From a virus, in UHGV virus genome UHGV-1376088: a stretch of DNA of 64,000 bases. One strand, 5' to 3'. Under the pieces are notes generated by a model. It was not told the origin of the DNA. It was given only the letters and a program-made list of their open reading frames with translations, and made no database searches. The translations under genes were made by a program, and so were the position numbers. This document shows, piece after piece, positions 13,662 through 61,914 of this stretch. Position 1 is the first letter of the stretch. Each line of letters opens with the position of its first letter.

Positions 13662-14219
13662 ATGAAAAAACAAATTACACCCAAAAGAAAATCAGTATTA
13701 ATTGTATCAATGCTAAATGATCAGACAACAAATCCTTCTGGTCCTAAAGCAATTCCAAATGCTAATAAAAGTTTGGAAAAGTTACAAACAGCCTTTGCTT
13801 CAGGAAATATTAAACATGATGCCGTGATTGCAGTAGACTATTCTGGCAGTAAGAATAGCAAATGGAGCAGCGGTAAATTGATTCCGAATAGCAAAGTGAT
13901 TAAAGTAGAACTTCAATCTGACAATTGGTTTGGGAAAGAAAACCTTATGCACATTCCCGAGTCAACTGGTGAAGATACTACTGTTCAATACTTTGATAAT
14001 ATTGATTTTCTATTGCCGACACATGAATATGATTTAACCTTTGCTGGCATCGATTTCTTTGGAACAATGAGTGCTTCAATGAAAGAGTTGGCTAGTCGTG
14101 GTTATCGAATTCGCTATTATTCTGATTGCTCTCATTTTTATGGACGCAATCGTAAAGAAGAATTGGCTGAACTTGGAATCTATCGTCACTTCACCTCTTT
14201 TAAAAAGGAAAGTAAATAA
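13662..14219 (+). CDS. hypothetical protein
   Basis: 185 aa ORF. Confidence 0.3.
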   Translation: MKKQITPKRKSVLIVSMLNDQTTNPSGPKAIPNANKSLEKLQTAFASGNIKHDAVIAVDYSGSKNSKWSSGKLIPNSKVIKVELQSDNWFGKENLMHIPESTGEDTTVQYFDNIDFLLPTHEYDLTFAGIDFFGTMSASMKELASRGYRIRYYSDCSHFYGRNRKEELAELGIYRHFTSFKKESK

Positions 14220-14626
14220 TGGATATTCAAGTTACACTATGGGAAAATTCTTCTAATGGTTCTACATTAGCTCGTGGTTTTGTTAAAATTGGCGGATTCG
14301 TTCAGATTAATATTTCTATTTATTCTGGTCGAAATGGTCCATTTATTGCTTTCCCATCTTATAAAAAACAGGATGGAACATGGCAAGAAACTGCAGGTCC
14401 TGTAAGCAAAGAGTCCCGTGAAGCTATTACAGCGGCGGTATTGAATGCATACAATAAAGGTTCTGCGCCTGCTGGAGGAAACGGATATAACGTAGTTGAA
14501 CCTCCACGTACACAGTACCAAGGACAAGCAGCAGCCAGAAGCAATTATGACCCGAATGTAGGTAATGGTAACGGACAGCAACAAGCCAATCCGGATCATG
14601 CACCTATTGGCGGAATTCCTTTTTAA
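14219..14626 (+). CDS. SpoVG-like protein
   Basis: I-S-I-Y-S-G-R-N-G-P-F-I-A-F-P-S-Y-K-K-Q-D-G-T-W-Q-E-T-A-G-P-V-S-K-E-S-R-E-A-I-T-A-A-V-L-N-A-Y parallels the conserved SpoVG core (I-D-G-N-N-G-L-F-V-A-M-P-S-K-R through I-Q-D-A-V-L). A G/N/Q-rich C-terminal tail follows. Codon usage differs from flanking AT-rich genes. Confidence 0.5.
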   Translation: MDIQVTLWENSSNGSTLARGFVKIGGFVQINISIYSGRNGPFIAFPSYKKQDGTWQETAGPVSKESREAITAAVLNAYNKGSAPAGGNGYNVVEPPRTQYQGQAAARSNYDPNVGNGNGQQQANPDHAPIGGIPF

Positions 14627-14634
14627 GGTAAACT

Positions 14635-15108
14635 ATGTCTAATTATAATGTAGCAGAACAACCCTTGGAGTATGCAATTTATAAATCCAAGGCAGCGCTT
14701 CGTATGCGCTTAGTTAACCCTCGTATTAATAATTCTTCCGGAAGAGATATTCTGAATAAAGGTTTTGTTTATTTAGAAATTGCCCCTATAAAAGAAGGTT
14801 CTGGAAATCAAAAACAATACGAATGGGAAAATAAAAAAATCGGCGTAAAACTTGGGATGCCTGATTTGTCTCAGATTGTTTATTCCATGAAACGCGGACA
14901 AGAGGCCGAAATGTTTCACGAATTTGATGGTTCAACCAAAGTTATTAAATTAACTCGAACCACCGAAGGTAAGTCTCCTTATTTTATTTCGGTAACTCAA
15001 AACAATGGCGGTGTGAAATCCCAATATTCAATTCCTATCAGCGGACAAGAAGCTGAAGTGATTTTGAATTTGGTATCTTATGCTATTCCTAAAACCCTCA
15101 ATTGGTAA
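14635..15108 (+). CDS. hypothetical protein
   Basis: 157 aa ORF in the codon-usage-distinct cluster. Confidence 0.3.
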   Translation: MSNYNVAEQPLEYAIYKSKAALRMRLVNPRINNSSGRDILNKGFVYLEIAPIKEGSGNQKQYEWENKKIGVKLGMPDLSQIVYSMKRGQEAEMFHEFDGSTKVIKLTRTTEGKSPYFISVTQNNGGVKSQYSIPISGQEAEVILNLVSYAIPKTLNW

Positions 15109-15720: not shown

Positions 15721-15885
15721 GTAAGGTTTAAATTACAATTTGCTCTTATTGAACGCTTGATTGCGTAATATGGGTCAGTGGGGCCCAAATGATTATAGGA
15801 CTCCGTATTTTGCATTTATATGCAGCGGGGTCCATTTTTCTTTTTTGCCTTGATTGGCTGTTATATTTTTGTTGGAGAGATATAT

Positions 15886-16221
15886 ATGTCTTATGTTGAT
15901 GACGAGTTTTTAGCTATTCTTGGCAATGTGGAAAATACAGCAAAAGAAGCTAAAGACGAAATAGAAGCTGCTGGCGAAATGGGCGAAGATATTATTTTGA
16001 ACCTTCAAAATATCTTTGAACAAGGTGAAGATGTAGGCGTAGATGCCGAAGATTTAAAAATTATTATGGAAGCTCGTTCTACTGTCCATATTAAGCCAGA
16101 AATTATTGAACGTATTCTCAGAAATTTTAAACCCGAGTTTTGGACTAGATCTTCTGTAACTATTGATGTTGCTATGGAAGCCATTAAAAACTCTCAAAAT
16201 ATCCTGGACGATTATTATTAA
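15886..16221 (+). CDS. hypothetical acidic protein
   Basis: ORF-track frame 15820..16221. The likely start is ATG 15886 after a ggagag RBS. Confidence 0.3.
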   Translation: MSYVDDEFLAILGNVENTAKEAKDEIEAAGEMGEDIILNLQNIFEQGEDVGVDAEDLKIIMEARSTVHIKPEIIERILRNFKPEFWTRSSVTIDVAMEAIKNSQNILDDYY

Positions 16222-16236
16222 ATCGAAGGGATAAAT

Positions 16237-16815
16237 ATGATAATTGCTAACCAGGGCCAGGCTGTTATGAGAATCCTTTTTGCAAAGCTTGCAAATGAAT
16301 TGGGTTTAAAATACAAAATTCCAAAAAAGATTAAGCCTAGAAATTTTGATGTATTTTTTAAGAATCTGCGATTTAAGACTATAAATATTGGTCGTGATCC
16401 TTCAGGTAGATATTTTGTAGAAATAGATACCATGATTGATTTTAGAAAAACGGTTAGAGAGATTATTGATGATTATGGTTCTAGCCTATCGCTTTTATCA
16501 TATGATTGCAGTCTTATTCATGTCGCCGACAGGGGTCATTTTGTAGAAATATCTTTACCGAATAGGAATGCTGTTTTGTCTATATATGACCGAGATGTAA
16601 ATCAACTTGGGCAATTCAATAGAAGCTCTTATAATAGGGAAGATGGCGAGTATGGGATAAAAGGAATATTTAGCGAAAATGGTTCCTTATATATTCGCAA
16701 GTCTTTAATTGATGATATATACATATATTGTCGTTCCGCTGACTGTGTGCGGAGAGATCTTCTTGTTCTTCTTGATGGCAAAACTTTTGAATATATAGCA
16801 AGAAGAGGGCATTGA
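16237..16815 (+). CDS. hypothetical protein
   Basis: 192 aa ORF. Confidence 0.3.
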   Translation: MIIANQGQAVMRILFAKLANELGLKYKIPKKIKPRNFDVFFKNLRFKTINIGRDPSGRYFVEIDTMIDFRKTVREIIDDYGSSLSLLSYDCSLIHVADRGHFVEISLPNRNAVLSIYDRDVNQLGQFNRSSYNREDGEYGIKGIFSENGSLYIRKSLIDDIYIYCRSADCVRRDLLVLLDGKTFEYIARRGH

Positions 16816-16878
16816 TATTAATAAATATATCCTAATGATATTGAAATTAATATTTATTAAATATAAATGGAGTTTTAA

Positions 16879-17388
16879 ATGGATAGAAATAAAATATATC
16901 AGAGGATTATGTTATTAAAATTAATCGAAGGTTCTGGACTTAATACTCCATATGAGATGGACCTCGATCTAGTTGGCAATGCCTTTCTGGGCAAAGAGTA
17001 TAAAATTTTCTCAGATGATATAGATAATCTTGGAAGAGTTGTTATTGTGGGTACAATGAATCTTACCCCAACAGTGATACCTAAATCATTCAGTTCAAGA
17101 TTAAGAACATTCCTTTTCTTTTTCAGGAAAGAAAACGAATTGCATCTTGTGAGTATAAAAACGAGATACATAAATGCTATTACTTATAATTTTATGAAAG
17201 ATATCGGCGCTAAAAAGATATACTATACGACTGACGAAAGCGAAACAAGATTGGTGTCTAGCGACTTTAATGGTATAGAAAAGATCTATTATCATCCAGT
17301 ATCATCTATTCATAGAAGCGGCATTTCATATAAAAATGTTATGGATGATTTTAGCCTAAGGTGCTCCAGTTTGATAAATTTCTTATAA
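16879..17388 (+). CDS. hypothetical protein
   Basis: 169 aa ORF. Confidence 0.3.
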   Translation: MDRNKIYQRIMLLKLIEGSGLNTPYEMDLDLVGNAFLGKEYKIFSDDIDNLGRVVIVGTMNLTPTVIPKSFSSRLRTFLFFFRKENELHLVSIKTRYINAITYNFMKDIGAKKIYYTTDESETRLVSSDFNGIEKIYYHPVSSIHRSGISYKNVMDDFSLRCSSLINFL

Positions 17389-17389
17389 G

Positions 17390-18031
17390 GTGTCTTATAT
17401 GGATCTTATTAATTTGAATAAGCCCTTAAATAAATTGATCATATCTAAGATTTTATTAGATGGAAACTATAAGGCGGATATTTATAAATTTAAGGAAATC
17501 ATACCATATATTTATGCCATTCGTACTAACAATAGAGGGCAAATTTTTCTTGAATTCGTAACAGAAGTCGACATGGGATTTGATGTAATGGCTCGAGACA
17601 CTGGAAGGGCATTTATTAGTCGTTCCGTCTGGAATCTTTTATGTTATGGTGATTTAGGAAATTTTATAAATTTATCGTGTGAACTGTATAATGAAAATCA
17701 AAGATATCTTAGCTATCTTATGAGCCATCTGCCCAATCATTACAATGATATAATAGAGGTTCAATACCGAGAAGGGCAAAAATATTTTATTTATTACTTA
17801 GTTGAATTTATAGCCGGCTCGAAAGAAAATCTATATTCAAAAATTCATAATATAAGCTCCAATAAGATGGAAGCTTTTCGAACTATGCAAGGTGAAGTAT
17901 TTAATTCCCTTACATACAATATGAAGCGTAATGAAAAATACGATATGAAAATTTCAGGCAAGAGCTCGTATATAAGTCATATGGATGAATACACATTTTT
18001 CGAATTTTATGATAGATATCGAAACATTTAA
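17390..18031 (+). CDS. hypothetical protein
   Basis: 213 aa ORF immediately upstream of the E2-like gene. Confidence 0.3.
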   Translation: MSYMDLINLNKPLNKLIISKILLDGNYKADIYKFKEIIPYIYAIRTNNRGQIFLEFVTEVDMGFDVMARDTGRAFISRSVWNLLCYGDLGNFINLSCELYNENQRYLSYLMSHLPNHYNDIIEVQYREGQKYFIYYLVEFIAGSKENLYSKIHNISSNKMEAFRTMQGEVFNSLTYNMKRNEKYDMKISGKSSYISHMDEYTFFEFYDRYRNI

Positions 18032-18042
18032 AGGAAGTAAAT

Positions 18043-18762
18043 ATGCAAGGCAAAATTAATATTGAAGTTTTGAGTCAAGACAAAGCTATTATCCATGTTC
18101 AGGATCTGCAAGGTAAATGCACATCTAAAATGGTTACAACAAAAGCTGCCGCTGCGGCTCTGGCTGGCCCTAATGGTGAAGCTAAAGATTCTGGATTGAT
18201 CCCCCAAAACATTTTAAGAATTTGGGAGAATTCACAATACAAGGGCTATTTGATTTATCAGCCGTCTAGAATGTTTGGCATTAAATATGAAGGAAGGTCA
18301 TTGCGCCAAGTCAAACTTCCTGGAATTGTTATGAAAGCAGTTGTGAATTCAAGAGGGCAATTTATCGGCGATAGAAGCTCTATCTTTATTTGTAATGGCG
18401 ATGAAATCAAACCCGATACAAAACTTTGGCATTTACGAATGAACAATTATAGCTCCGGTTATGGTATTTGCTGGGGCGATAATAAGAATATTGCAAATTC
18501 GATTCTAGCTAGTGGAAACCTATTTGATATTGAGCAGCTCCCGCAATTATTCTTTGGATCAACATTTAACTCGGATTTGGATAATACATATATCTTTGAC
18601 AATTCCATGTTAAGAAGAATTAATGAAAATCCTTCAATTCCTAATCATAGAAATTTAACAGTTCAATTTTTTACATTGAAAGGGTTAGAGAATGAAGATT
18701 ATAATCTGGAATCCGAATTAATGACCGAATATGATGCGGTTCTTAGCGGCATTATGATGTAA
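18043..18762 (+). CDS. candidate E2/UBC-like conjugating enzyme
   Basis: 239 aa. W-H-L-R-M-N-N then G-Y-G-I-C-W-G resembles the HPN...G-x-I-C-L core of UBC-fold E2s. It lies directly upstream of the JAB and E1 genes. Confidence 0.35.
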   Translation: MQGKINIEVLSQDKAIIHVQDLQGKCTSKMVTTKAAAAALAGPNGEAKDSGLIPQNILRIWENSQYKGYLIYQPSRMFGIKYEGRSLRQVKLPGIVMKAVVNSRGQFIGDRSSIFICNGDEIKPDTKLWHLRMNNYSSGYGICWGDNKNIANSILASGNLFDIEQLPQLFFGSTFNSDLDNTYIFDNSMLRRINENPSIPNHRNLTVQFFTLKGLENEDYNLESELMTEYDAVLSGIMM

Positions 18763-18790: not shown

Positions 18791-20167
18791 ATGAGTTTGA
18801 GCGTTGCTGATCTGATGGGCGAAATGGATTTTCGTTTGCCGAAGGTTGTACAAAGCAAAGAAGAAGCAGAAGATGGCGATTCTATTGTAGCTGAAGACGG
18901 TATCTATAAATTGGTCCGCGCCATTATTGGTGACTTCTGGATTAAGGCAGAAAGCTTTAAGACTAAGATGGTTGGAATGCCGCAGCTGTCAGAAAGCTTT
19001 ACACAGTCATCTGAAATTCCTAAAATCCCAGGTGAATTGTTTTACGGTATTATCAGATTCTACCGTAAAATTTACGAAACAAATAAAAATGAAGTGATGG
19101 CCCAGATTTGGTGGGATAAAGAAGAGCGCAAATTCCTGGTTGAAGTTCCAGAACAAGAAGTTGCAGGTGCTTCTATTACTTATCAAAGAACCGGCGGATG
19201 GTATGATGATCCTAATAAGGTCCTTGTATTGACATCTCACTCACATCATACAATGGGTGCATTCTATTCATCCGTAGACAATTCAGATGAAAAAGGCAAA
19301 CATGGAATTTACTCATTTGTATTTGGCAATTTAGTAAATAAGCCTGACGGAACATTTACATATAAAACCGTTCAGCGCGTATGCTGTGCAGACGCATTAA
19401 TTCCATTACAGCTGGAAGATATTTTTGATTTTACCGAAGGTTGCGAATTTCTTTTCGAAATCCCAGAAGAGGATTACGCAAAAGTTAAAGCTAAAGTTTA
19501 TAACTATGGAGCTTATGCTAATTATGGCAAATCTAAATCAAAGGGGTTTCCTTACACGGGCGGCCAATCAACTCCCGCAAACGTCTCAAAAATCGAAGAC
19601 AACTATGAATTTTACTCAGGATATCTGGGTTATTCTTACGGGAGTTATGACAGCGCTTGGGATTCTGTGGATTATCCTAACAATGCTTCAACTGTAGGAT
19701 CAAGCGCTATAGAAAAACGATGGCAAACTGGTGCTGAAGCCACGGTTGACAGAGTTAAATATGGATATATTTCCTCTATACTGAGAGGAATGTCCAAGCC
19801 TGGCGATGAGCTCCTGTATAACTATTTTGAATTCAAAGAAATTGAATCTATTGTTTCTGATTTTGTAAATGCTGTAAGCCTGCCGGAAACACATCCGTAT
19901 TATATGTTCGCAGAGCTTCTGAACTCATTTATGTCTAATCTTTTGGAAGGTCTTTCAGATGTACAATATGGTGATCGTGAAGGGCTTAGCAAAATTGAAG
20001 ATCCATCAAAAGCATTTGCCGTTGTGATTGCATCTGCTATTAGTGGTGTGGAGGATTCTTTTAATAGTATGGCTTCTCCTAATAGCGCTGTTGACCTTAT
20101 GAAAGACCATAATTTGAGCTTTTTGTATCTACCAGAACGAATTGCCGCTTATTTAAAAGATTTTTAA
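18791..20167 (+). CDS. JAB/MPN+ (JAMM) metalloprotease domain protein
   Basis: An upstream Glu (E-V-P-E-Q-E) then S-H-S-H-H-T-M-G-A-F-Y-S-S-V-D gives an exact H-x-H-x7-S-x2-D JAMM motif. A long Y/G/S-rich low-complexity C-terminal region follows. Confidence 0.6.
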   Translation: MSLSVADLMGEMDFRLPKVVQSKEEAEDGDSIVAEDGIYKLVRAIIGDFWIKAESFKTKMVGMPQLSESFTQSSEIPKIPGELFYGIIRFYRKIYETNKNEVMAQIWWDKEERKFLVEVPEQEVAGASITYQRTGGWYDDPNKVLVLTSHSHHTMGAFYSSVDNSDEKGKHGIYSFVFGNLVNKPDGTFTYKTVQRVCCADALIPLQLEDIFDFTEGCEFLFEIPEEDYAKVKAKVYNYGAYANYGKSKSKGFPYTGGQSTPANVSKIEDNYEFYSGYLGYSYGSYDSAWDSVDYPNNASTVGSSAIEKRWQTGAEATVDRVKYGYISSILRGMSKPGDELLYNYFEFKEIESIVSDFVNAVSLPETHPYYMFAELLNSFMSNLLEGLSDVQYGDREGLSKIEDPSKAFAVVIASAISGVEDSFNSMASPNSAVDLMKDHNLSFLYLPERIAAYLKDF

Positions 20168-20179: not shown

Positions 20180-21082
20180 ATGCAAAATGCTGTACTTGGC
20201 AGAAAGAAAATTGAATTTATTTCAACTCAAGATGAAATCAATAAGCATCAGAAAGAAGTTGAAGATTACGAAATGACAAAATTAATGCAACGTCTTTCGT
20301 CCGCCGAAACTAATGCTCCTAAAAAGCCGCTTGACCGCATTGTTGTTGTTGGTTGTGGCGGAACTGGCTCTTGGTTAATTCCAAAACTTGCAAAAACCAT
20401 CAATGATATGAAGCGCAAGAAATTACTTGCTAATCATTTTTCTTTGATTCTTGTTGATGGCGACCAAATTGAACCTAAAAATTTGATTCGGCAGAACTTT
20501 GTTGAATCAGATATTGGTAAAAATAAAGCGGAAATCATGGCTCTTCGATATGGGGCAACGCTTAAAGATATTAATGTCCAATATATCGACAAGTATTTGA
20601 CCGATAAGTCAAGTTTTGACACTAATCACTTTTCCCATATCAATGTTTTGCAGAATATGATTTACGATGACAATTATTGTGTCATATTCAATCTTGTTGA
20701 TAACCAAAATGCAAGACGCGCGGTTCACTCATTACAGTTCTGCGGCTGGATTGTTGATATTGGTAATGAACTGGCACATGGCCAATTGTTTGCAACTCCA
20801 TATGGTTTGACTAGTGGCTTTATTGGATCATTAAGCTTCTTCACTATGTCTCCGGAAACGTTGACGGCAGATGAAGAAGTGAAAATTTATTCTTGCGCCG
20901 AAGCCGATGCGGATACAGAGCTGGAAGAACAGTTCTTGGTTGCCAACGATACAGCTGCTTTGGTTGGACATAACTGGCTATGCTCTTTAATGAGCGGTCC
21001 AGATGTAGTTCCTGCAAGAATTAATTTTACATGCTTGCCAATTCCGACCGTAGAAACAGTGTTGAAAACAATCCGGTTTTAA
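20180..21082 (+). CDS. E1-like ThiF/MoeB-family adenylyltransferase
   Basis: Rossmann I-V-V-V-G-C-G-G-T-G-S-W. D-G-D-Q-I-E-P-K-N-L-I-R-Q corresponds to D-x-D-x-V-x-x-S-N-L-x-R-Q. E-S-D-I-G-K-N-K-A-E and N-L-V-D-N-Q-N-A-R correspond to D-C-T-D-N-x-x-x-R. Confidence 0.7.
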   Translation: MQNAVLGRKKIEFISTQDEINKHQKEVEDYEMTKLMQRLSSAETNAPKKPLDRIVVVGCGGTGSWLIPKLAKTINDMKRKKLLANHFSLILVDGDQIEPKNLIRQNFVESDIGKNKAEIMALRYGATLKDINVQYIDKYLTDKSSFDTNHFSHINVLQNMIYDDNYCVIFNLVDNQNARRAVHSLQFCGWIVDIGNELAHGQLFATPYGLTSGFIGSLSFFTMSPETLTADEEVKIYSCAEADADTELEEQFLVANDTAALVGHNWLCSLMSGPDVVPARINFTCLPIPTVETVLKTIRF

Positions 21083-21089
21083 TGTATAT

Positions 21090-21124
21090 GGTCGACATTA
21101 AATATGTCGACCGTTCTTTACTTT
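21090..21124 (+). terminator. rho-independent terminator after the E1 gene
   Basis: ggtcgacat-taaat-atgtcgacc perfect 9-bp stem then gttctttacttt. Confidence 0.5.
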
Positions 21125-21137: not shown

Positions 21138-22679
21138 ATGGAAGATAAAAATTTGTGTTTGAGCTTTTTAGCGCCTATGATGAATTTGTCTCAAACATTT
21201 TTAAATATTATCGAAAAAATTGAAAACGAAGAATGCTCTATTGACTCTTCGTTTCCTGAAAAGTTATTCAATAAGACGCCAAAAGAAGATGTTTTAAACG
21301 CGATTGAAACTCTCATTGATTATAATAATTTATTTTTGATTGACTTTGATGAGTATTCGAAAAAAGTAAAAACCTTATCAGATTTCGTTGGTAATTGTAA
21401 CAACACAATTCTTTTCAGAAACTTTAGAACTGATAAGGGTCGTGAAGTTTGCTATATCAATAAGCAGATCCCAGACATTTATTCAGATAGGATTAAAGAG
21501 ATCCATTCTAATATTAGACCCTTAATAGGCCGCCTAACTCCTAGACTGAATTTAATTAAAAATCAGAATTCTACAGATTCATATGTAGACATTAATTACG
21601 ATCAGATGGCCATCAAATCAGATATTTCTTCGTTCTTTCGCTCTGTAAGATTTGAAAATGTTATTAAATACCTCTCTAAGACTTTCCTTGTTAAAAATAT
21701 ACTTATGTATAGCAAAAGTCAAACTGAAAACAAAGAGCTTAGAGTATTTGAGCGAATTGAAATTGCTTTATGGGGATTTATTAGTTGTCTATTCCATAAT
21801 GGTATTATCCCTACTGGAGCTAGATATGCAAATGATTTAGCCGCCTGCTATTTGAATAATCTTGTTTTTAATACCTTTAGAAAGGACATGCTATATTCGA
21901 ATCGTGCAAGAATCTATGTATATGTAGATGACCTGCTCTTTCTCGGAGAGGAAGGCAATGTTAAAGAATTTTATGCGGAATTCGAAAAGGCTATCAATAA
22001 AGGCGGACTATATCTGAATTATAAGAAGACTCAATATTTTTATCCTAAAAATGGAATTCTTGAGTATTCTTCTTTGGGCAGAACTAGAAAATTTGACTTC
22101 ACAACTGGTTTTGTTTCTAAAGTTGATTCGAAAGCCCGCAAAAAATGTTTGGATATTATTAAAGAGCGCCGCGAATACGATGCCTCTGAGAAGGGTATCA
22201 TTAATTATGCATTATATATGAGGCATGGAGCCAATAAGATTGTCAATCCAGATATATTAATGCATTCTTATTTTAATGATAAATCCGAACTGTGGGATAA
22301 ACTTATAGCAGGTGAATTGAATCTGAAATTGAATAAGAGTATTTTTGATCCCACTAATCTGAAATATAAGGATATATGTATAATGTCAAAAGATATTGAT
22401 GTCGGTTTTCTTTCCGCTCATCAATTCCTTGACATTACAGATGCGATAGCAGAATTTGTAAAACTGTTTATCCTCGACAATCCTTTTGGTCTTAACCTAT
22501 ATGGAATTAATCTAACAGAATCCAATGAGGGTAATTATAATTTAATTCTGAATTTGGTAAGACAACGATCCAGAGGCACTGCGAATATAATCCCATGTCC
22601 TTTAATTTTCAGAAAAGATTTCCTAAACGGACTTTATGTAGAAGGCAAAGATGAAAGCGCTTTAAATGGATGGATATAA
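21138..22679 (+). CDS. reverse transcriptase (divergent; Abi/UG-like with C-terminal extension)
   Basis: RT motif A S-D-I-S-S-F-F-R-S-V. Motif B-like G-I-I-P-T-G-A-R-Y-A-N-D-L-A-A-C-Y-L. Motif C Y-V-Y-V-D-D-L-L-F-L-G. Motif D/E G-L-Y-L-N-Y-K-K-T-Q. About 230 aa follow the RT core. Confidence 0.6.
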   Translation: MEDKNLCLSFLAPMMNLSQTFLNIIEKIENEECSIDSSFPEKLFNKTPKEDVLNAIETLIDYNNLFLIDFDEYSKKVKTLSDFVGNCNNTILFRNFRTDKGREVCYINKQIPDIYSDRIKEIHSNIRPLIGRLTPRLNLIKNQNSTDSYVDINYDQMAIKSDISSFFRSVRFENVIKYLSKTFLVKNILMYSKSQTENKELRVFERIEIALWGFISCLFHNGIIPTGARYANDLAACYLNNLVFNTFRKDMLYSNRARIYVYVDDLLFLGEEGNVKEFYAEFEKAINKGGLYLNYKKTQYFYPKNGILEYSSLGRTRKFDFTTGFVSKVDSKARKKCLDIIKERREYDASEKGIINYALYMRHGANKIVNPDILMHSYFNDKSELWDKLIAGELNLKLNKSIFDPTNLKYKDICIMSKDIDVGFLSAHQFLDITDAIAEFVKLFILDNPFGLNLYGINLTESNEGNYNLILNLVRQRSRGTANIIPCPLIFRKDFLNGLYVEGKDESALNGWI

Positions 22680-27277: not shown

Positions 27278-27577
27278 CCTGGTAATAGTATCTATGGTTA
27301 CTATTTAGTAACTGTAGATTTCTGCCGTTCATAGTGGAAACATTATGAATCATGATAGCGGAATTAAGCGAGAAAATCCTCCCTCTTAGATAGGACAACT
27401 CGAACCGAAGGCTGGCCCTAACGGCCCAGTCAGGGGCAACGCATAGAAGCTGAAACTAATAATAGAATATAATGCTTCCACGAGGCCGCTACACCTAAGT
27501 CCTTTGGATATGGTGAAAAAGTATGCTGAACTGCATTGTAATGATGCAGAGGCAGAGATAAAAAGCTCTGCGATAAC
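27278..27577 (+). mobile_element. ORF-less group-I-like intron in recA (boundaries about 10 nt uncertain)
   Basis: About 300 nt interrupt RecA between T-T-P-G-N and A-I-P-F-Y-C-S-S-R-V. The sequence shares the core seen in the dnaE introns (the cacctaagt...atggtgaaaa...gataacaa motifs). It is GC-richer than flanking DNA. Confidence 0.55.
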
Positions 27578-28018
27578 AAAATGGGAAAAGCCATTCCGTT
27601 TTATTGCTCAAGTCGTGTTAAAGTAAATTCGACCCCGTCAATGCGAATTAAAAATTCAGCCGGCGATGGATTCATTGGTCAAACCGTGGACTTTACTATA
27701 ATTAAGAATAAAGTCGGTAGTCCTTTTGGTGTTGGTGAATCTAATCTTTATTTTGGTGTTGGTTTTAATAAAGTTGAAGAACTTATTGAAGCTGCTATTG
27801 CCAAAGATGTTTTTGAAAAGGGCGGAGCCTGGTACACATTACCTTATTGTACTGAAGATGGCGAAGTTTTAAAATTTCAAGGTAAAACTGGCCTTAAATC
27901 ATATTATGAAGCCAATCCTTCCGAATTAGATAAACTTCAAGAACTTGTTAACAATGCGGGACGTGATGATGAAATTCAAGTAGTTGGGGCGCCCGGTACA
28001 GTTGAGGATGGATATTAA
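27578..28018 (+). CDS. recA: RecA/UvsX-like recombinase, exon 2
   Basis: G-K-A-I-P-F-Y-C-S-S-R-V-K-V corresponds to RecA G-N-A-L-K-F-Y-A-S-V-R-L. V-G-S-P-F-G matches the RecA A-A-P-F-K region. Confidence 0.65.
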   Translation, partial: KMGKAIPFYCSSRVKVNSTPSMRIKNSAGDGFIGQTVDFTIIKNKVGSPFGVGESNLYFGVGFNKVEELIEAAIAKDVFEKGGAWYTLPYCTEDGEVLKFQGKTGLKSYYEANPSELDKLQELVNNAGRDDEIQVVGAPGTVEDGY

Positions 28019-28588: not shown

Positions 28589-30346
28589 ATGGACTTTGTA
28601 TCCACTCCTGAAAATCCAAATGGTGATATTAAACCCGAAGATATCGGGAAGTATACGAATTTACATGCTCATAGCATTTATAGTCCTTTAGATGGCTTCG
28701 GTAAGCTTGAAGAATATTGCGAACGGGTAAAAGCTCTAGGGATGAAAGGCTTATGCCTTTCTGAACATGGCAATATGATTGGTCATCATGAACAGGCTAA
28801 GATTTGTGCTAAGCATGGCATTAAGCCTATTTTTGCTAATGAAGGGTATATGACTCTTCATGCCGGATCTATTAAAGAAAAGATAGAGGGTTATAAGGCG
28901 AACTATCATATTTTGCTTATTGCTATTAATGAGCAGGGTTATAGAAACCTTATGAAAGCTACATCTATTGCTTGGACACGTTATAAATATTATAAGCCAC
29001 GCTTTGATTTAGCACTTCTTGAAGAATGCAACGAGGGCCTGATTTGTACATCTGCTTGTCTTGGCGGACCAATTAATCAGTTATATTTAGATGGCCGACC
29101 TGAAGAGGCTGAACAGGTTGCGCTAAAGCTGAAAGAGATTTTCGGCGATAGATTTTATTTGGAAAAAACTTATACCGGCTTAGAAGAGCAAGATATTGCT
29201 AATAAGAATTTGGTTGAGATTTCTAAAAAGCATAATATACCTATGATTATTACTTGTGATAGTCATTATGTTTATCCTTGGCAATCTGATAGTCATGCAA
29301 AATTGGTTATGGTTAATACTGGCGGTCAAATCAATAAAGCGATTAAGGCTGCCGGCTTAACTGACTCTAGCAAAGAAGATGCTGACGTAGATAGCAACTC
29401 TATGTTCTATCAGCCTAGTCAGTATTATGTTAAACCACATCATGTATTGGTTGAAGAATATTATTCTAATCCTGAAGATGAAGAAGCCTTTGCCAATACT
29501 AATAAAATTGCAGATATGTGCAATGTGGTTTTACCTAAAAATGAAGACATCATTTTTCCTTCACCATATTCTGATCCCGATTCTGTTTTAAGAGGACGGG
29601 CAATGCAATGGTATTCGGAATACTCTAAAAAACTTTCTGATGAACAAAAAGCATTGTATTTAGATAGGCTGGAAGAAGAGCTGGATATGTATTCTAAAAT
29701 GGGCTTTAGTTCTTATCCTTTGGTGCTGCAAGAGATTCTTGATGAAGCCAAAGCGAAAGGCATTATGATTGGCCCTGGCCGAGGATGCCTATTTGAGGGA
29801 ACTAAAGTTCTAATTAATAGATCCGGATCCATATATTATTGTCCGATTGAATTTGTCAAAGTCGGCGATATGGTATGGACACATAATAGCAGATGGAAGT
29901 CTGTATATCATACCACTAAATATGTTGTAGACTATAGAGATATGGTTACTCTCGAGACAGAATATGGTATGATGCACCTCACAGAAGACCATAAAGTAAA
30001 AACAAAAAACCATGGATTTATCCCTGCTATTGAATTAGACGGACAAATACACACACTGGATAGAGGAACTTTATCCGATGAAATTCTGTCTAAAGTTGAA
30101 GATTATAAAACCGATTCAATCGAAAATTTTGAACTTTCTAGCTTCTATAATGAGGATGAACCTGTAAGGGTTTATGATCTTATGGTTGATGAAGATTGTT
30201 CTTTTAGAACTAATATCTGTATGGTGCACAATAGTGCCGCGGGGTCTTTACTCTCTTATGCATTAGGTATTACTGCTATTGACCCTATACCATATGGACT
30301 AATGTTCAGTCGTTATCTTAACGCCGGACGCGCAAAACTACCGGTT
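28589..30346 (+). CDS. dnaE: DNA polymerase III alpha (DnaE-type) exon 1, with PHP domain; contains mini-intein
   Basis: L-H-A-H-S-I-Y-S-P-L-D-G-F-G-K is the PHP N-terminus. G-P-G-R-G then intein then S-A-A-G-S-L-L-S-Y-A-L-G-I-T-A-I-D-P. F-S-R-Y-L-N-A-G-R ends the homology, which resumes at 37624. Confidence 0.75.
29786..30232 (+). mobile_element. mini-intein (149 aa) in DnaE at the GRG/SAAGS site
   Basis: Begins with Cys (C-L-F-E-G-T-K-V-L) and ends V-H-N, followed by Ser. The flanking exteins reconstitute the conserved G-R-G-S-A-A-G-S motif. Confidence 0.7.
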
Positions 30347-30403
30347 ATTGAAATTAAAGGCTACCCATTAAAAGAGTGGCTAACAACAGAAAGAAAATAA
30401 AAA

Positions 30404-31767: not shown

Positions 31768-32883
31768 ATGTATATTCTTAGTATTGTATTCAGTAATCAT
31801 TGTGATTTGGATTGTTCTTATTGCTGCATACAGTCTAAGAATATGTCTCCTGTATTGGCGAATTTAGAACAGATTAAAGATTTCATTAGAAAATATGCAA
31901 AGACAGGATCCATTGTTGAATTTTATGGAGGTGAACCTACCCTTCATAAAAAAGAGCTATTTGATATCATCAATTTCTGTAGCTCTCTTGATATGGACAT
32001 TGGCACTAGGCTATATACTAATGGATTATTTGCTAACTGGACAGAGGAAGAGATTCTTTCTCTGTCTTACATTTTAGATGAAGTTCTCATTTCTCTTGAT
32101 GGATCTACATTTGAAGAGAATAAACAGCGCTTTGAAAATCAGGCCCAGTTTGATGCTGTCCTGAATAATATTAAAACAATGCGAAAATCTGAGGATTTGA
32201 ACATTACTTTAAGTTCTGTTTTATATGGTCGATCCAAATTTGAGAATATGTTCTCTAATTACAAATTCTTTTCGGCGCTTGGTGTTGATACCTTTAGCTA
32301 TGAGCCGGTCACTATATATAGGACAGACAAAGCTGTTATTATCCCTAGGGATTTCTTTGGTGCTTTATTTAAGGGCATTATGGAAATTTCTAGGGACATT
32401 TTTATTTCCGGAAAAGAGCGATCTTTGTTTGTAGCAAAAGAACTGTTAGCTGCTTCTTGGTATCATCAGGGAGACAAGGATTTATGTTCTAAGAACGTAA
32501 GAGCCATTTCTCCGCGCGGCAATATTTATATGTGTCGTGATCATGCAGCTAATGAAGAAGAGATGTTTTATTCTCCTAAAGTTATTCAGTTCTTTAATAA
32601 GAATAACCTGAAGTCAGATAATGAATCATTCCCACTAGTGGAAGAAAACGAAAAAGACTTAACGCATTGTCCTGTTAAAAATATACAATACAGACAAGCT
32701 GGTGTTGAAAAGGATCTATACTGGTTATCTGATTCGTGGCAAGATTTTGTAGTAAAACCTATGTATTCTACGATTCTTGCTGTAAACTCTCAGGCCGATA
32801 ATCTGTCTGAAATAATTGATTATTTTTATCCTAAAGTTGATGAGTTATTAAAAATAGCTATTAGTCAGGAAGGAATTAAATGA
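31768..32883 (+). CDS. radical SAM enzyme with extra C-terminal Cys (SPASM/anSME-like or activase-like)
   Basis: C-D-L-D-C-S-Y-C is the C-x3-C-x2-C cluster. F-Y-G-G-E-P-T-L-H is the SAM-binding GGE motif. Further cysteines near residues 245-300. Confidence 0.55.
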   Translation: MYILSIVFSNHCDLDCSYCCIQSKNMSPVLANLEQIKDFIRKYAKTGSIVEFYGGEPTLHKKELFDIINFCSSLDMDIGTRLYTNGLFANWTEEEILSLSYILDEVLISLDGSTFEENKQRFENQAQFDAVLNNIKTMRKSEDLNITLSSVLYGRSKFENMFSNYKFFSALGVDTFSYEPVTIYRTDKAVIIPRDFFGALFKGIMEISRDIFISGKERSLFVAKELLAASWYHQGDKDLCSKNVRAISPRGNIYMCRDHAANEEEMFYSPKVIQFFNKNNLKSDNESFPLVEENEKDLTHCPVKNIQYRQAGVEKDLYWLSDSWQDFVVKPMYSTILAVNSQADNLSEIIDYFYPKVDELLKIAISQEGIK

Positions 32884-37114: not shown

Positions 37115-37370
37115 ATATAAAACATTAAGAGAATTAGTTTTATCCTTTTCTGACACCGATTGGTTTAAAGAACATAGAGCAAATATTATGTTTGAATTAA
37201 ACCATTGTGAACTTCATCATATTGATTCCTATTATTTGAATTTATACAATGCAGGCGTTAAAGGTATAGAGGAAAATGAAGCTAATTCTTCTATTGCATA
37301 TTTACTCGGAATTGTAACAACCCCGCCAAATGGTAAAGTTCATACTGTTGGCGGAGGTTTCCCGGATTAA
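37089..37370 (+). CDS. hypothetical protein (intron cargo)
   Basis: 93 aa. Confidence 0.25.
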   Translation: MIQVKKMAEYKTLRELVLSFSDTDWFKEHRANIMFELNHCELHHIDSYYLNLYNAGVKGIEENEANSSIAYLLGIVTTPPNGKVHTVGGGFPD

Positions 37371-37623
37371 AGAAATAGTCCCTTTGTTAAGAAATTGACA
37401 ACAGAAAACTCTGTGAAAACGGTGGAACTCTCTAGAAGACAATGCCGTGCGAAAGTTTGCGAAAGCGAAAGACGTGTAACGACTATTATGTAGGGCCAAG
37501 TGGTTCGAAGCGCAGAGCACCTAAATCCTTATGGACATGGTGATGAGATAGTCTGGTCTCTATGGCGACATAGAGCTGGTTTTGTACCGGGTATAGATTA
37601 ACGACCTATACTGAACATAAACG

Positions 37624-38456
37624 ATTGATTCCGATGTAGAAAAAGAAAGACGCGCTGAAGTATTTGAAATGCTTAAAGATAAGTATGGAGAAGGATTTGC
37701 GCATCTTGGTACACTAACCTATACTGGCGGCAAAAAGGCATTTAAAGATGCTGCACGTATTCATGGTATGGGTTTTGATAAAGCAAATAAGATATCGTCC
37801 ATGATGCCTGAAATTGGATGTCCTCCACTTGACGTATTACTCAAAGAAGACGATGAAATCAAGGCATTGTATGACTCAGACCCCGAAGTAAAAGAGGTCT
37901 GGGACGATGCAATTAAGCTCAGTGACTGTTTATCCAGTCAAGGGGTTCATGCATGTGGAGTTGCATTGTCTGATCGTCCACTATGGGAAGATGTTCCACT
38001 TTGGGATAGCAAAGGCGTTCCTGTTATTCAGTGGGAAGGTAATAAAATTGAAGAAACGTCAAATGTTGTAAAATTAGATGTGCTTGGGTTAAAAACGCTT
38101 ACAGTTCTTAACTTTGCAAGAGAGCTAATTAGAAAGCGTCATGGTATTGACATTGACTGGTATAATTTACCAATGGACAATGAAGCGGCATATAAAGTTC
38201 TTTGGAACGAAAGAAACTATGGCATATTTCAATTTGAAGAAGCTGGTATGTCTGGATTCGTTAATGCTTGTAAGCCTAAAACTATTCATGATATTGCAGT
38301 AATTGTATCAACTTACAGGCCTGGGCCGTTAAACATTCCCGGATTGGTACAACGAATTATAGGAAAGATTTCTGGAGAACTTCCTCCAACGAAATTTAGA
38401 TTTCCTAAGTATGACCACATCTTTAGTAGTGCACATAACGAATTGATTTTTCAGGA
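37624..38456 (+). CDS. dnaE: DnaE exon 2
   Basis: I-D-S-D-V (catalytic Asp pair) E-K-E-R-R-A-E-V-F-E-M-L-K-D-K-Y-G-E-G-F-A-H-L-G-T-L-T-Y aligns with E. coli [33 protein letters not shown]. It ends at I-F-Q-E (E. coli I-L-Y-Q-E-Q). Confidence 0.65.
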
Positions 38457-39534
38457 AGGTTCGAATGGCCTTTGTCAAAGGTAACAAATTACAACAGAAA
38501 TATAGCGATGAGCTTATAAATAAAATAATCGAAGAATATCTTGGTGGCCTTACTGCCGTTGAGCTTGGCAAGAAATATAGTATTAAACCTGGAACCATAA
38601 ATTACCATCTAAGAAAAAGAGGGTTAAGCAGAGGGTCAGGCAAGCCTAGCTCGATAGCAAATAAGGATTACTTTGAAACTATAGATACAGAAGAAAAAGC
38701 ATATTTCCTCGGCTTTCTTATGGCTGATGGATGCATAAGCTCTTCTCATGTAAACTATCATATAAAATTAGTGCTTCAAGAAAAAGATGCAGACGTGATA
38801 AAAGCATTCTTATTAGCTATTGGAAGCAGTAATTCTATTACGAAAGTTATAAAGAATAACCATATTGGCTACTCTGTATCCTTAAGTTGCAAAAAGATGT
38901 TTTACGATTTAGTTAATCATGGGTTTTTGGAGCATAAATCTGGGAATGAAATTATTCCGAATACTATTCCAGATGAGCTTATTCGTCATTTTATTAGAGG
39001 TTATTTTGATGGCGACGGATGTGCATCCAAAGAAGGAAGAATAAGCATCGTAGGCGGAATAAAGATCCTTGAAGATATAGCCAAACACGCGATGATTGAC
39101 GATTATAGTATTTATGAGTTTAAAAATACTTCTGTTGTACGCGATTTGAGATACTCTAAATTAAGAAGCTCCAAATTGTTTTATAATTATCTTTACAAAG
39201 ATGCCAATATCTTTTTATATAGAAAGTGGATTAGACTTTTCAATGTCCACGGCCCTATATAAAAGAGGGACGTTTAAAGTGGAAACACTTTTTATTATGA
39301 CTGGCCAATATCGGTGGAGGGATTTTGCTTTTATCCTAATACCGAGATAACTCCGTATTTAAATGATGCGGAGCATCGTAGAGCATAGAATCTGAAACTC
39401 CAATGGAGAATATAATGATTCCACGAGTGGCCGGCACCTAAGTTGATTTTCAATATGGTGAAAATGTATGCCGAACTATATCGAGAGCAAAAGTAGATAT
39501 AGAGCCAAAGGATAAAAAGCCTTTGGGATAACAA
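38457..39534 (+). mobile_element. group-I-like intron containing a LAGLIDADG homing endonuclease ORF
   Basis: The intervening sequence sits between the exon 2 end and the exon 3 start. The 3' 270 nt (39263..39534) carry the shared intron core. Confidence 0.6.
38465..39262 (+). CDS. LAGLIDADG homing endonuclease (double motif)
   Basis: Two motifs, Y-F-L-G-F-L-M-A-D-G-C-I-S and F-I-R-G-Y-F-D-G-D-G-C-A-S. An N-terminal HTH-like segment is present. Confidence 0.75.
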   Translation: MAFVKGNKLQQKYSDELINKIIEEYLGGLTAVELGKKYSIKPGTINYHLRKRGLSRGSGKPSSIANKDYFETIDTEEKAYFLGFLMADGCISSSHVNYHIKLVLQEKDADVIKAFLLAIGSSNSITKVIKNNHIGYSVSLSCKKMFYDLVNHGFLEHKSGNEIIPNTIPDELIRHFIRGYFDGDGCASKEGRISIVGGIKILEDIAKHAMIDDYSIYEFKNTSVVRDLRYSKLRSSKLFYNYLYKDANIFLYRKWIRLFNVHGPI

Positions 39535-39612
39535 ATTGTCCTCCGTCTATCAAAAGAGATGTGCGGCTTCTCTGATATTAAAGCTGATGTTCTGAGAAAG
39601 GCTGTAGGTAAG
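39535..39612 (+). CDS. dnaE: DnaE exon 3 (micro-exon, about 26 aa)
   Basis: V-L-R-L-S-K-E-M-C-G-F-S-D-I-K-A-D-V-L-R-K-A-V-G-K aligns with E. coli [21 protein letters not shown]. Confidence 0.6.
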
Positions 39613-39852
39613 TTAATTGCCCCTTGTTTTAGTAATAAGACAATGTGCATCGAGCAAAATCGGTGAAGGCTGAGATGCTAATACCGAGGTAAGTTTGCAG
39701 GAACTGTAAACCACCGTAGAGCGTAGAGATTGAAAAGATATAATATCTCCAAGAGTGTTCGACATCCTAATGGGATGAAAATGTACGCCGAACTTATGCA
39801 AATATGAAGCATAAGAACTATCGGATAAAAAGCCGATAGGTTAACATAATTG
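39613..39852 (+). mobile_element. ORF-less group-I-like intron
   Basis: About 240 nt. Shares the aatcggtgaagg...aataccgaggtaagt...gtagagcgtag...atgtacgccgaact...ggataaaaagcc motifs with the other introns. Confidence 0.55.
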
Positions 39853-39984
39853 AAAAAAGATGCAGCCAAACTAGCATCACTCAGAGAAGACTTCATCAAT
39901 GGTGCAGTAGCCAATGGTGAAGATAAAAAAGAAGTAGCGCAATTCTGGGAAGAGCTCCTAGAGTTTGCGAGGTATGCATTTAAC
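39853..39984 (+). CDS. dnaE: DnaE exon 4 (about 44 aa)
   Basis: K-K-D-A-A-K-L-A-S-L-R-E-D-F-I-N-G-A-V-A-N-G-E-D-K-K-E-V-A-Q-F-W-E-E-L-L-E-F-A-R-Y-A-F-N aligns with E. coli K-K-P-E-E-M-A-K-Q-R-S-V-F-A-E-G-A-E-K-N-G-I through V-E-K-F-A-G-Y-G-F-N. The ORF-track TTG start is an artefact. Confidence 0.6.
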
Positions 39985-40263
39985 GCTTTGATTTATAAGA
40001 GAAAATCTGAGGCGTCTAGTATAGCAATATATTAGATTATCAGTGGGCAAAATCGGTGAAAGGATTTACCTTGTATTCCCAATACCGAGATAAGTTTAAG
40101 GTTAACATCTTAAACTATTGTAGAGCATAGGCGGTGAAACTCGTTAGAGAATATAATCCGCCCAAGAGTGTCCGCCTTCCCTATGGGAAGAAAATATATG
40201 CCGAACTATGGAGAGTGTAAAGTATCCATAGAACTAGAGGATAAAAAACCTCTAGGATAACAA
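39985..40263 (+). mobile_element. ORF-less group-I-like intron
   Basis: About 280 nt. Same core motifs, and the same ...ggataacaaTTG 3' end as the intron before exon 3. Confidence 0.55.
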
Positions 40264-56520: not shown

Positions 56521-57237
56521 ATGAATATTTTTGATATTATTGGGGGACTACTGAATCAAGGTAGCAATAAAGCCCCCGAAGTTAAAGTTCCATACAGATT
56601 GGAAGAAGATTCCTTTGAAGAAGTAAATAATGAGGTGCCTTTAAACGCTCAAAATCCTATCAAGGAGAGCGTTACTCTTGCTCCTGAACCAATCCCTCCA
56701 GTAGGTGTTAAAACTCAATCTGAGAGCGGATATAAGCCATTGCCGGGCGGTTTCAAATGTCAGCCATTGAAGCATGGGTTAAATGTTCTAAGAACTGCGA
56801 AATTGTCCTCTGTTCGGTCGGCTGGATTTGGTATGGTTCGCAATGGAGGAACAAGACCTCATCAGGGCGTGGATTTAGCTGTGCCTAATAATTATCGTTG
56901 TTATGCGGTTGATGATGGCATAGTTTCATTTGTAAAAACTTCTGATGATAATGGCTACGGAAGAATGCTTATCATTAAACTTGATGGTGGCTTATTTGTA
57001 GCTTATGCCCATCTTAAAGACATTCTTGTAAAGGAAGGTCAAAGAGTTAAGGCTGGAGACGTTGTGGCGTTAACTGGTTCTTCTGGCAATGCTAGAACAA
57101 TGCGAGATATGCCGGGCGGCTCCCATTTGCATTTTGAAGTTAGAACTTCTCAACACCCTGGCAAAGGCCTTGCCGGCCGTATTGACCCTTTAAAATACTT
57201 TACTCCTGATACCTATAATAAATCTTTGTATCAATAA
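56521..57237 (+). CDS. M23 (LytM-like) peptidase, endolysin candidate
   Basis: R-P-H-Q-G-V-D-L-A is the H-x-x-x-D motif. G-S-H-L-H-F-E-V is the H-x-H motif. The N-terminal about 100 aa may be a linker or binding region. Confidence 0.6.
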   Translation: MNIFDIIGGLLNQGSNKAPEVKVPYRLEEDSFEEVNNEVPLNAQNPIKESVTLAPEPIPPVGVKTQSESGYKPLPGGFKCQPLKHGLNVLRTAKLSSVRSAGFGMVRNGGTRPHQGVDLAVPNNYRCYAVDDGIVSFVKTSDDNGYGRMLIIKLDGGLFVAYAHLKDILVKEGQRVKAGDVVALTGSSGNARTMRDMPGGSHLHFEVRTSQHPGKGLAGRIDPLKYFTPDTYNKSLYQ

Positions 57238-57243
57238 AAATAA

Positions 57244-57277
57244 CCCCGACACCTAACCGGTGCCGGGGTTTGTTTTT
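57244..57277. terminator. bidirectional terminator between convergent + and - blocks
   Basis: ccccgacacc-taacc-ggtgccgggg hairpin flanked by T-runs on both strands. Confidence 0.6.
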
Positions 57278-57279
57278 GC

Positions 57280-57807: not shown

Positions 57808-57810
57808 GGA

Positions 57811-58008: not shown

Positions 58009-58017
58009 TAATAGTCC

Positions 58018-61905: not shown

Positions 61906-61914
61906 ATTGGCCTC

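Follow-up and report, generated by a model that had tools for sequence, protein, structure and literature searches.

An undescribed, retron-related reverse transcriptase lineage of phages with a fixed place in the replication and recombination module of an uncultured phage clade

In the present work, we analysed a 64,000-nt stretch of the virus genome UHGV-1376088 (hereafter, the window) and, within it, a gene for a stand-alone reverse transcriptase (RT) that lies immediately downstream of a ubiquitin-like (Ubl) conjugation cassette composed of a candidate Ubl, an E2-like protein, a JAB peptidase and an E1-like enzyme. We are highly confident that the gene encodes an active-looking RT of a new, retron-derived and phage-only lineage, that it is a core gene of a replication and recombination module, and that it belongs neither to a diversity-generating retroelement (DGR) or group II intron nor to a canonical retron. 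Stand-alone RTs of prokaryotes are known as enzymes of mobile elements (group II introns, DGRs) or as parts of anti-phage systems (retrons, Abi, DRTs). The lineage described here, found only in phages, falls outside every described class and keeps one fixed position among replication and recombination genes despite a divergence of the RT to ~20% identity. Its nearest relatives are defined by RNA and effector partners, none of which accompanies it. This pattern of conservation points to a role that serves the phage itself, whether in its DNA metabolism or in a conflict with its host.

The sequence-only reading of this stretch had recognised RT motifs A, C and D/E in the translated gene, and had allowed for these being coincidental on a fold other than an RT palm. 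The gene occupies precisely the positions given there, and all of the quoted motifs are present. The fingers and palm carry motif 1/2 (N-T-I-L-F-R...K-G-R), motif A (D162-I-S-S-F-F), motif B (H-N-G-I-I-P-T-G), motif C (Y-V-D-D), motif D (K276) and motif E (G-G-L-Y-L-N-Y-K-K-T), and the Pfam family RVT_1 matches aa 109-309 with 36.5 bits, above its gathering threshold of 29.6. Matches extend to twelve RT models of PADLOC and to two polymerase/RT families of PHROG. A search of 5.8 billion proteins yielded 15 homolog clusters (37-99% identity, all 502-525 aa), in whose alignment K100-G-R102 of motif 1, D162-I-S-x-F-F of motif A, P225-T-G227...Y230 of motif B, Y262-V-D-D265 of motif C, K276 of motif D and G289-G-L-Y-L-N-Y-K-K297 of motif E are invariant. 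Based on this alignment, AlphaFold2 produced a confident model (pLDDT 85.9, pTM 0.78) with the right-hand fold of fingers, palm and thumb, preceded by a four-helix N-terminal domain (aa 1-92). Beyond motif E, the modelled chain continues as a helical, thumb-like region (aa ~311-392; conserved columns S311, L313, G314, K332, R334, K335, G353 and Y357) and ends in ~120 aa of an alpha/beta domain without recognisable relatives. In this last domain, the model places strands at 452-461, 466-476 and 482-492 with helices on their flanks; distant members of the clade are not alignable there, and scans of Pfam, PADLOC and NCBIfam returned no domain match. Because of the profile scores, the invariant motifs and the confident model, coincidental motifs on a non-RT fold are excluded.

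Motif B had been read as P-T-G-A-R-Y-A-N and called atypical. It is present as quoted, but amounts to the canonical LPQGxxxSPxLxN with a single Q-to-T substitution; it gives the nucleotide pocket an unusual residue, Thr in place of Gln. Genuine type VI retron RTs carry the same exchange as a rule (P0049, P0052 and P0072, with 273-291 bits on the PADLOC model RT_VI). A profile search of 1.84 billion cluster representatives retrieved only 100 proteins at E<=1e-3, the first ~40 of which, with sequences more conservative than that of the window RT, share H-N-G-x-(L/I)-P-T-G-x-x-Y-S-P-x-(L/I)-S-N and T-R-Y-A-D-D. These conservative relatives score best on retron models, namely 100-128 bits on the PADLOC models of types I-B, II-A, III-A, VI and XII, besides 51-97 bits on NCBIfam retron_St85_RT (cut-off 235) and 21-37 bits on the NCBIfam models Drt2, Drt3a and Drt4. 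Comparisons of folds and of hidden Markov models (HMMs) likewise put the RT closest to retron-type RTs, and ~250 of its residues align with 308-aa retron RTs in the fold comparison. The closest resemblance had previously been sought among Abi/UG-type stand-alone RTs, an assignment for which we found no support: the UG matches in PADLOC reach about 35 bits at most (UG17 35.3, UG36 30.6, UG33 26.8, UG26 26.5), cover the palm only, and are no better than those to the generic CRISPR-RT domain model PDLC01607 (41.5 bits, the top PADLOC match) or to RT_VI (35.8 bits), while the fold likeness to UG/Abi/DRT RTs is lower than to retron, DGR or group II RTs.

Placement by HMMs thus leads to retron-type RTs as the nearest kin, and to membership of no described class. 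On RT_VI the window RT stays far below the genuine type VI enzymes, and its match to the Ec107-like model has 22.1 bits. The tripeptide V-T-G in motif 7 is a signature of retron RTs; at its position, the family studied here holds S-L-G, A-L-G, I-L-G or I-V-G. We found no msr-msd adjacent to the RT: the spacers on its two sides measure just 55 and 49 nt and leave no room for one, Rfam gave no credible match, and no suitable inverted repeat lies nearby. The type VI operon includes a small toxin and a helix-turn-helix (HTH) protein upstream of the RT (10.1101/2025.10.22.683967). This effector is missing here, where the upstream gene encodes E1/ThiF and the downstream gene a protein with a uracil-DNA glycosylase (UDG) fold. 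A DGR is rejected on the strength of a repeat search across the 64-kb window (of a ~180-kb genome), which found no pair of template and variable repeats (TR/VR), in line with the sequence-only reading; the longest direct repeats are <=57 nt, unrelated to the RT and none of them near it. Neither is there an Avd-like gene beside the RT, nor the (I/L)GxxxSQ of DGR enzymes in motif B. A group II intron or other known non-coding RNA (ncRNA) is likewise rejected, Rfam being negative both at its gathering threshold and at E<=1, and the reported lack of a maturase/X or endonuclease domain is borne out by the lack of GIIM and HNH matches in Pfam and by 25.4 bits on TIGR04416 (group_II_RT_mat, cut-off 300). 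Tightly packed, conserved protein genes flank the RT in 27 contigs, so that it is no mobile insertion.

As to the remaining classes, PDLC01607 is a short, generic RT-domain model, and the window holds neither a cas-like neighbour of the RT nor a repeat array. UG/Abi/DRT classes are characterised by a C-terminal alpha-repeat domain (class 1), an adjacent ncRNA (class 2) or a fused nitrilase or phosphohydrolase (class 3) (PMC9226505). None of these features was found in the window RT, which has an alpha/beta C-terminal domain, no adjacent non-coding space and no nitrilase or phosphohydrolase; no Drt model is among its NCBIfam matches, nor UG27 among those in PADLOC. The match to G2L4 in a profile search against the PDB is not significant (E 0.48, 12.2 bits). 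Among 185,579 bacterial and archaeal genomes (one per species) there was no whole member of the family, only retron-type RT cores with 22-34% identity over the core. The RT therefore fails membership of the retron, DGR, group II, CRISPR-RT, UG/Abi/DRT and G2L4 classes. We conclude that it is an undescribed, phage-only lineage with its origin in the retron-type part of the RT tree, possibly in the vicinity of retron clade 3.

The second pillar of our finding is genomic position. The window covers the replication and nucleotide-metabolism arm of a large uncultured phage, with genes for a SpoVG-like and a Whirly-like protein, RuvC, RecA, a PRA-PH/MazG-like pyrophosphatase, a split DnaE-type polymerase, a radical-SAM protein, a primase-helicase, both ribonucleotide-reductase subunits and a PD-(D/E)XK nuclease. 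Neither a 7-kb megablast nor a tblastn search with the RT revealed a close described phage among 50,697 GenBank phage records, and a DnaE search of GenBank phages found distant ones only (<=36% identity). The family is rare, and relatives reside on metagenomic and IMG/VR contigs, the longer ones of ~120-190 kb, where public annotation lists their proteins as 'hypothetical protein [Bacteriophage sp.]'. We collected 35 loci from 27 distinct contigs, using as seeds the RT, the gene downstream of it, E1 and RT relatives at great distance (profile E values down to 2e-11). The order E1, RT, 260-290-aa protein is found in 27/27 contigs, even in lineages whose RT has no more than 20-27% identity and a length of 432-699 aa. 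Wherever the sequence of a locus spans the region upstream of the RT, E1 is located there, loci seeded with E1 all carry the RT, distant RT relatives all sit in the same synteny, and among the 35 loci there was no E1 without RT and no RT without the downstream gene. A homology search with E2 returned in-clade proteins only. The shared synteny extends to SpoVG, Whirly, a small conserved protein, E2 and JAB upstream, and to RuvC, RecA, PRA-PH and DnaE downstream. Since gene order is constant across the loci, the RT belongs to the clade as a fixed gene of long standing, and since the base composition of the window is uniform, there is no sign of its recent acquisition. Taken together, the RT is a fixed gene of the replication and recombination module of a deep, uncultured phage clade. 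The whole region being syntenic, however, gene order does not tell which of its neighbours the RT works with.

Constancy of position goes along with a fast pace of sequence change. Across four relatives, identity amounts to 42-60% for the RT, 71-75% for E1, 55-78% for E2, 49-67% for JAB, 62-88% for the downstream UDG-fold partner, 73-92% for RuvC, 84-94% for RecA and 87-94% for DnaE. Within the RT, the N- and C-terminal domains drift around a catalytic core that stays frozen. An RT that is never missing but changes faster in sequence than the genes beside it is compatible with a conflict-facing protein or with loosely constrained peripheral domains. The coordinates of the RT, its domains and the adjacent features are listed in Table 1.

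Table 1. Positions in the window of the RT gene, its domains and the neighbouring features
Feature	Position	Strand	Remarks
RT gene, 513 aa	21138..22679	+	ATG start; stop codon included
RT N-terminal helical domain, aa 1-92	21138..21413	+	confined to this RT family
RT fingers and palm, aa 93-310	21414..22067	+	Pfam match aa 109-309; invariant columns; clade-wide alignment
RT thumb-like region, aa 311-392	22068..22313	+	S-L-G motif; conserved helices S-K-x-R-K-K...E-K-G-x-I-N-Y; predicted secondary structure
RT C-terminal alpha/beta domain, aa 393-513	22314..22676	+	variable across clade; no recognised fold
Partner gene, 286 aa	22729..23589	+	UDG-like fold aa 1-133; disordered acidic/PQ linker; conserved C-domain aa 198-283
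E1-like adenylating enzyme, ThiF family, PRTRC-like	20180..21082	+	Pfam ThiF 56.7 bits
JAB/JAMM metallopeptidase	18791..20167	+	Pfam Prok-JAB weak; H-S-H-H-T-M-G-A-F-Y-S-S-V-D, exact HxHx7SxxD in translation
E2-like protein	18043..18762	+	Pfam Prok-E2_D weak; invariant G-(I/V)-C-W-G catalytic-Cys motif in six-lineage alignment
Candidate ubiquitin-like modifier, 64 aa	15526..15720	+	conserved in seven lineages; invariant C-terminus R-(T/S)-G-(S/A)-K-A
Terminator/attenuator-like GC hairpin, 11 pairs, and T-rich run	21088..21124	+	between E1 stop and RT start

Downstream, the RT is followed at a distance of 49 nt by its partner gene, which is packed more tightly against the RT than E1 is: according to gene calls and an open reading frame (ORF) tally, the two genes overlap by 8 nt in the relatives L001 and L003, by 44 nt in L007 and by 1 nt in L031/L032. 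The partner is better conserved than the RT when the same contigs are compared (75% vs 43%; 62% vs ~40%). By sequence, it has no match in Pfam, PHROG, PADLOC, NCBIfam or PDB profiles. Its structural model (pLDDT 68.6 overall, ~80-90 inside the domains) consists of an alpha/beta N-domain, a disordered linker and a small C-domain with the motif K-L-S-D-P-G-L-G-K-S-L-K-L, and a fold search assigned the N-domain to a UDG-like fold, with matches to the psi subunit of DNA polymerase III (Pol III psi) and to a phage PolA structure. The active-site motifs canonical for UDGs are not apparent in the partner alignment. An Fe-S cluster as in family 4 UDGs was considered and dismissed, as the four cysteines are not conserved in distant homologs. 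Proteins with a UDG fold recur as accessory subunits of polymerases, e.g. poxvirus D4, E. coli Pol III psi and domains of phage PolA. Because such proteins serve polymerases elsewhere, we propose that the partner may be a DNA-binding or polymerase-accessory protein, either for the RT or for the DnaE replisome.

Upstream, the cassette looks complete and active as far as its motifs allow one to tell. E1 has the ThiF nucleotide-binding motifs and also matches PADLOC models of Cap2-type E1-E2 proteins, and the 64-aa protein is a plausible Ubl whose Gly would be exposed by JAB cleavage. Among curated families, JAB comes closest to NCBIfam PRTRC protein A (48.1 bits, cut-off 101.8) and E1 to PRTRC_ThiF (64.7 bits, cut-off 144.75), both below cut-off. 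PRTRC denotes the ParB-related, ThiF-related cassette of plasmids and integrative and conjugative elements; neither a ParB-like nor a CD-NTase gene was found among the neighbours scanned. To our knowledge, no RT is part of PRTRC or of type II CBASS. It was also asked whether the RT could itself serve as the conjugated protein, with its C-terminus as a handle as in CBASS; the tail is variable and has no terminal Gly, which makes an 'enzyme as modifier' unlikely. In many relatives, the E1/ThiF gene, intact in the window, is split into two ORFs by inserts of ~140 to 1200 nt (L001, L003, L011/L023, L012/L025, L014/L024, L018, L028, L029, L031 and L032), which suggests further insertions of introns or homing elements in the clade.

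The junction between E1 and the RT bears on whether the two are expressed as one. The hairpin located there is the strongest terminator-like site within 15-26 kb. Close relatives retain it via compensatory changes, and in distant ones (L018, L026, L028, L031, L032, L005 and L008) a hairpin with a T-run is found in the same place, built from unrelated stem sequences. Because structure is kept without sequence, we read it as an intrinsic terminator or attenuator. A dedicated RNA of the RT was considered for the same element and rejected: only the structure and the T-run are conserved, and the element is missing where the genes overlap. Only ~20 nt are left between the hairpin and the RT start codon, which makes read-through, or else a promoter within E1, the probable source of RT expression. 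There are exceptions to this layout. E1 and the RT overlap by 4 nt in L009 and by 1 nt in L033, L007 has a short spacer without hairpin, and in L006 two ORFs (~1 kb) are inserted between the genes. The evidence on an E1-RT link is thus mixed: the two are always neighbours and sometimes translationally coupled, yet transcriptional punctuation separates them in most lineages.

What does the RT do? From its context, we infer an RNA-templated polymerase with a part either in the DNA metabolism of the phage or in its conflict with the host. The reading we lean to, tentatively and aware that it may well be wrong, is that the RT is expressed along with the UDG-fold protein, that it copies RNA supplied in trans, and that the DNA product serves the DNA metabolism of the phage. 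The two proteins would be made together from a transcript that reads through the terminator or attenuator ending the Ubl/E2/JAB/E1 genes, and their level would hence be lower or subject to regulation. The RT would then copy RNA into DNA while the phage replicates; since there is no room for an adjacent ncRNA and no credible Rfam match, this RNA would come in trans, as a phage or host transcript or as an ncRNA encoded elsewhere. The UDG-fold protein would act as a DNA-binding or polymerase-accessory subunit, and the DNA product might be used for repair or recombination based on complementary DNA, for priming, or for erasing the introns of the clade, an idea that arises because the clade is intron-ridden (recA and dnaE in the window, E1 in many relatives). 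Such a role would differ from the abortive infection carried out by known stand-alone bacterial RTs, and adjacency to the Ubl cassette would reflect a shared module organisation and possibly shared regulation. In its most far-reaching form, which we hold to be doubtful, this would mean that reverse transcription is built into the DNA metabolism of a large double-stranded DNA phage clade, with a retron-lineage RT, a UDG-fold subunit and RecA/RuvC, perhaps under Ubl control.

An alternative, already raised by the sequence-only reading and in our judgement less probable though still a serious contender, is that the RT belongs with the Ubl/E2/JAB/E1 cassette to a single conflict system, for counter-defence or superinfection exclusion, in which Ubl conjugation activates, targets or regulates the RT or in which the RT product is coupled to protein tagging. 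In type II CBASS, Cap2 (E1-E2) and Cap3 (JAB) control a nucleotide-synthesising enzyme, which provides a parallel. The presence of E1 upstream of the RT in every locus that spans the region, across deep divergence, speaks for such a system, as do the overlapping genes of L009 and L033, a rate of RT evolution like that of arms-race proteins, the likeness of E1 to Cap2-type models and of JAB and E1 to the PRTRC models of mobile elements, and a cassette that looks catalytically complete. Conversely, adjacency is no independent evidence in a region that is syntenic as a whole, the structure-conserved hairpin stands between E1 and the RT in most lineages, and L006 tolerates two ORFs in between. Besides, the cassette has its own candidate Ubl (...T-G-S-K-A) and so no need of the RT as a 'modifier', for which the variable RT C-terminus, not ending in Gly, would be ill suited. 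Retron-type RTs also occur elsewhere without such a cassette, as our scan of species genomes revealed, and PRTRC cassettes occur without an RT. Nor did the literature searched contain a precedent. Of the earlier proposal of one functional unit, the invariable and sometimes overlapping arrangement thus stands, whereas the conserved terminator-like hairpin that usually separates the genes counts against it.

The affinity to retrons raises the possibility of a cryptic retron-like element, whose ncRNA would lie elsewhere in the genome or inside a neighbouring coding region and give rise to a single-stranded DNA (ssDNA) akin to retron msDNA. Such DNA would function as a regulator or decoy, with host nucleases or sensors of ssDNA or recombination proteins among the conceivable targets. 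The nearest folds and HMMs would fit, and so would the P-T-G in motif B, common with type VI. Moreover, retron RNAs can be non-canonical, as type VI retrons have an unusual hybrid RNA and little msDNA at rest (10.1101/2025.10.22.683967). We nevertheless consider this improbable, because intergenic room for an msr-msd, a credible Rfam match and a small-toxin or HTH gene are all lacking, RT_VI gives 35.8 bits rather than the ~280 of true members, V-T-G is replaced by (S/A/I)-L-G, and retron RTs do not have the additional domains present here at the N- and C-terminus.

AbiK, Abi-P2, DRT4, DRT9 and DRT10 are polymerases that work without an RNA template or are protein-primed. An enzyme of this Abi/UG-like kind, making random, homopolymeric or repeat DNA against a competitor phage or a host process, would agree with a stand-alone RT that has an extra C-terminal domain and no ncRNA in cis, with the weak PADLOC matches to UG17, UG36, UG33 and UG26, and with UG27 being a UG-type RT carried by gut phages (PMC9226505). 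The palm-only scores and the nearer retron models and folds reported above speak against it, and we consider it improbable as well. Lastly, a DGR or group II intron with parts that were missed or lie outside the examined sequence is largely refuted and very improbable, given no TR/VR-like repeat in 64 kb, no Avd-like gene, a motif B without (I/L)GxxxSQ, no group II RNA at E<=1, no maturase or endonuclease domain, and tight, conserved flanks in 27 contigs.

Apart from the RT, the window contains several features of note. Both recA and the latter half of dnaE carry interruptions. An element of ~230-250 nt occurs in four copies with a mean identity of 67% (27335-27580, 39300-39545, 39640-39860 and 40020-40265); one copy interrupts recA, which is intact in the relative L004, and three lie between short dnaE-like exons, directly upstream of the ORF for the DnaE C-terminus. 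No Rfam family matches them even at E<=1, though Rfam does recognise a group I intron close by. The four copies behave as small introns would and may represent an unrecognised family of mini-introns or ribozymes. The canonical group I intron (RF00028, 67.2 bits, E 7e-15) spans 37358-37575 on the plus strand, directly upstream of the ORF for the middle part of DnaE (37669-38484). The DnaE-type polymerase as a whole is fragmented (28589-30400, 37669-38484, 38465-39262 and 40264-41541): a PHP/pol3-alpha N-terminal gene is followed by ~7 kb of other genes, the middle segment, an ORF for a LAGLIDADG-like homing endonuclease, micro-exons split by mini-introns and, finally, the HHH_6 C-terminal ORF. 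Relative L018 has an intein in DnaE instead.

The SpoVG-like and Whirly-like (ssDNA-binding) genes at 13662-15108 (plus strand) are conserved core genes of the clade. Together with an AdoMet-decarboxylase-like gene found further upstream in relatives and with the radical-SAM gene at 31768-32883, they hint at unusual DNA or nucleotide chemistry. Between the candidate Ubl and E2 lies a hypervariable block of four genes (15820-18031, plus strand; 133, 192, 169 and 213 aa). In relatives with flanking genes of 75-95% identity, these four have 23-46% identity or are absent. At ~57 kb, genes switch to the minus strand, GC and AT skew invert and the G+C content rises to ~0.42; a 1295-aa ORF located there (58018-61905, minus strand) has no Pfam match, and the region ~57000-64000 is probably the boundary with another genome module.

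In the literature searched, which covered crAss-like phages, Whirly and SpoVG, RTs of jumbo phages, orphan phage RTs, PRTRC and anti-defence RTs, we found neither a description of this RT family nor any RT accompanied by E1/E2/JAB. A familiar enzyme class is thus met here as a new lineage, with a new architecture and in a new genomic role, its function being inferred from context only. The family provides an evolutionary link between retron-type RTs and phages, a compact enzyme with a Thr-for-Gln nucleotide pocket, and a natural setting in which to study a complete phage-encoded Ubl/E2/JAB/E1 system. If the RT does serve phage DNA metabolism, it would be the first RT to act as a core replication or recombination factor of a tailed phage; if it is tied to the cassette, this would be the first link of prokaryotic Ubl signalling to reverse transcription.

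Comparison with known systems helps to delimit the locus. As with poxvirus D4, Pol III psi and the PolA domains, the partner has a UDG-like fold and is encoded directly after a polymerase gene; unlike them, it adds a conserved C-terminal domain without known fold. With PRTRC and with Cap2/Cap3 of type II CBASS, the window shares a separate E2, JAB and E1 and a small candidate Ubl, but its proteins score below the family cut-offs and its cassette is part of a phage replication module. DGRs differ from the present RT in their TR/VR repeats, Avd and (I/L)GxxxSQ, and G2L4 differs in that the window RT has Y-V-D-D, another motif B and other N- and C-terminal domains, and is encoded by a phage. UG/Abi/DRT enzymes are likewise stand-alone prokaryotic RTs with lineage-specific extra domains, and UG27 sets the example of whole phage families, including gut phages, that carry an RT of unknown role (PMC9226505). 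In contrast to these enzymes (including UG27 and UG17/DRT10), the window RT comes without an alpha-repeat domain, an adjacent ncRNA and their typical partner genes. Type VI retron RTs (clade 3, e.g. Retron-Vpa2 and Retron-Sen3) have the P-T-G of motif B in common with it. Apart from its low RT_VI score and (S/A/I)-L-G motif, however, the window RT lacks their msr-msd or hybrid RNA, small toxin and HTH gene, and it carries an additional N-terminal domain of 92 aa and a C-terminal one of ~120 aa. While theirs is a bacterial defence island, the setting of the RT described here is the replication module of a phage.

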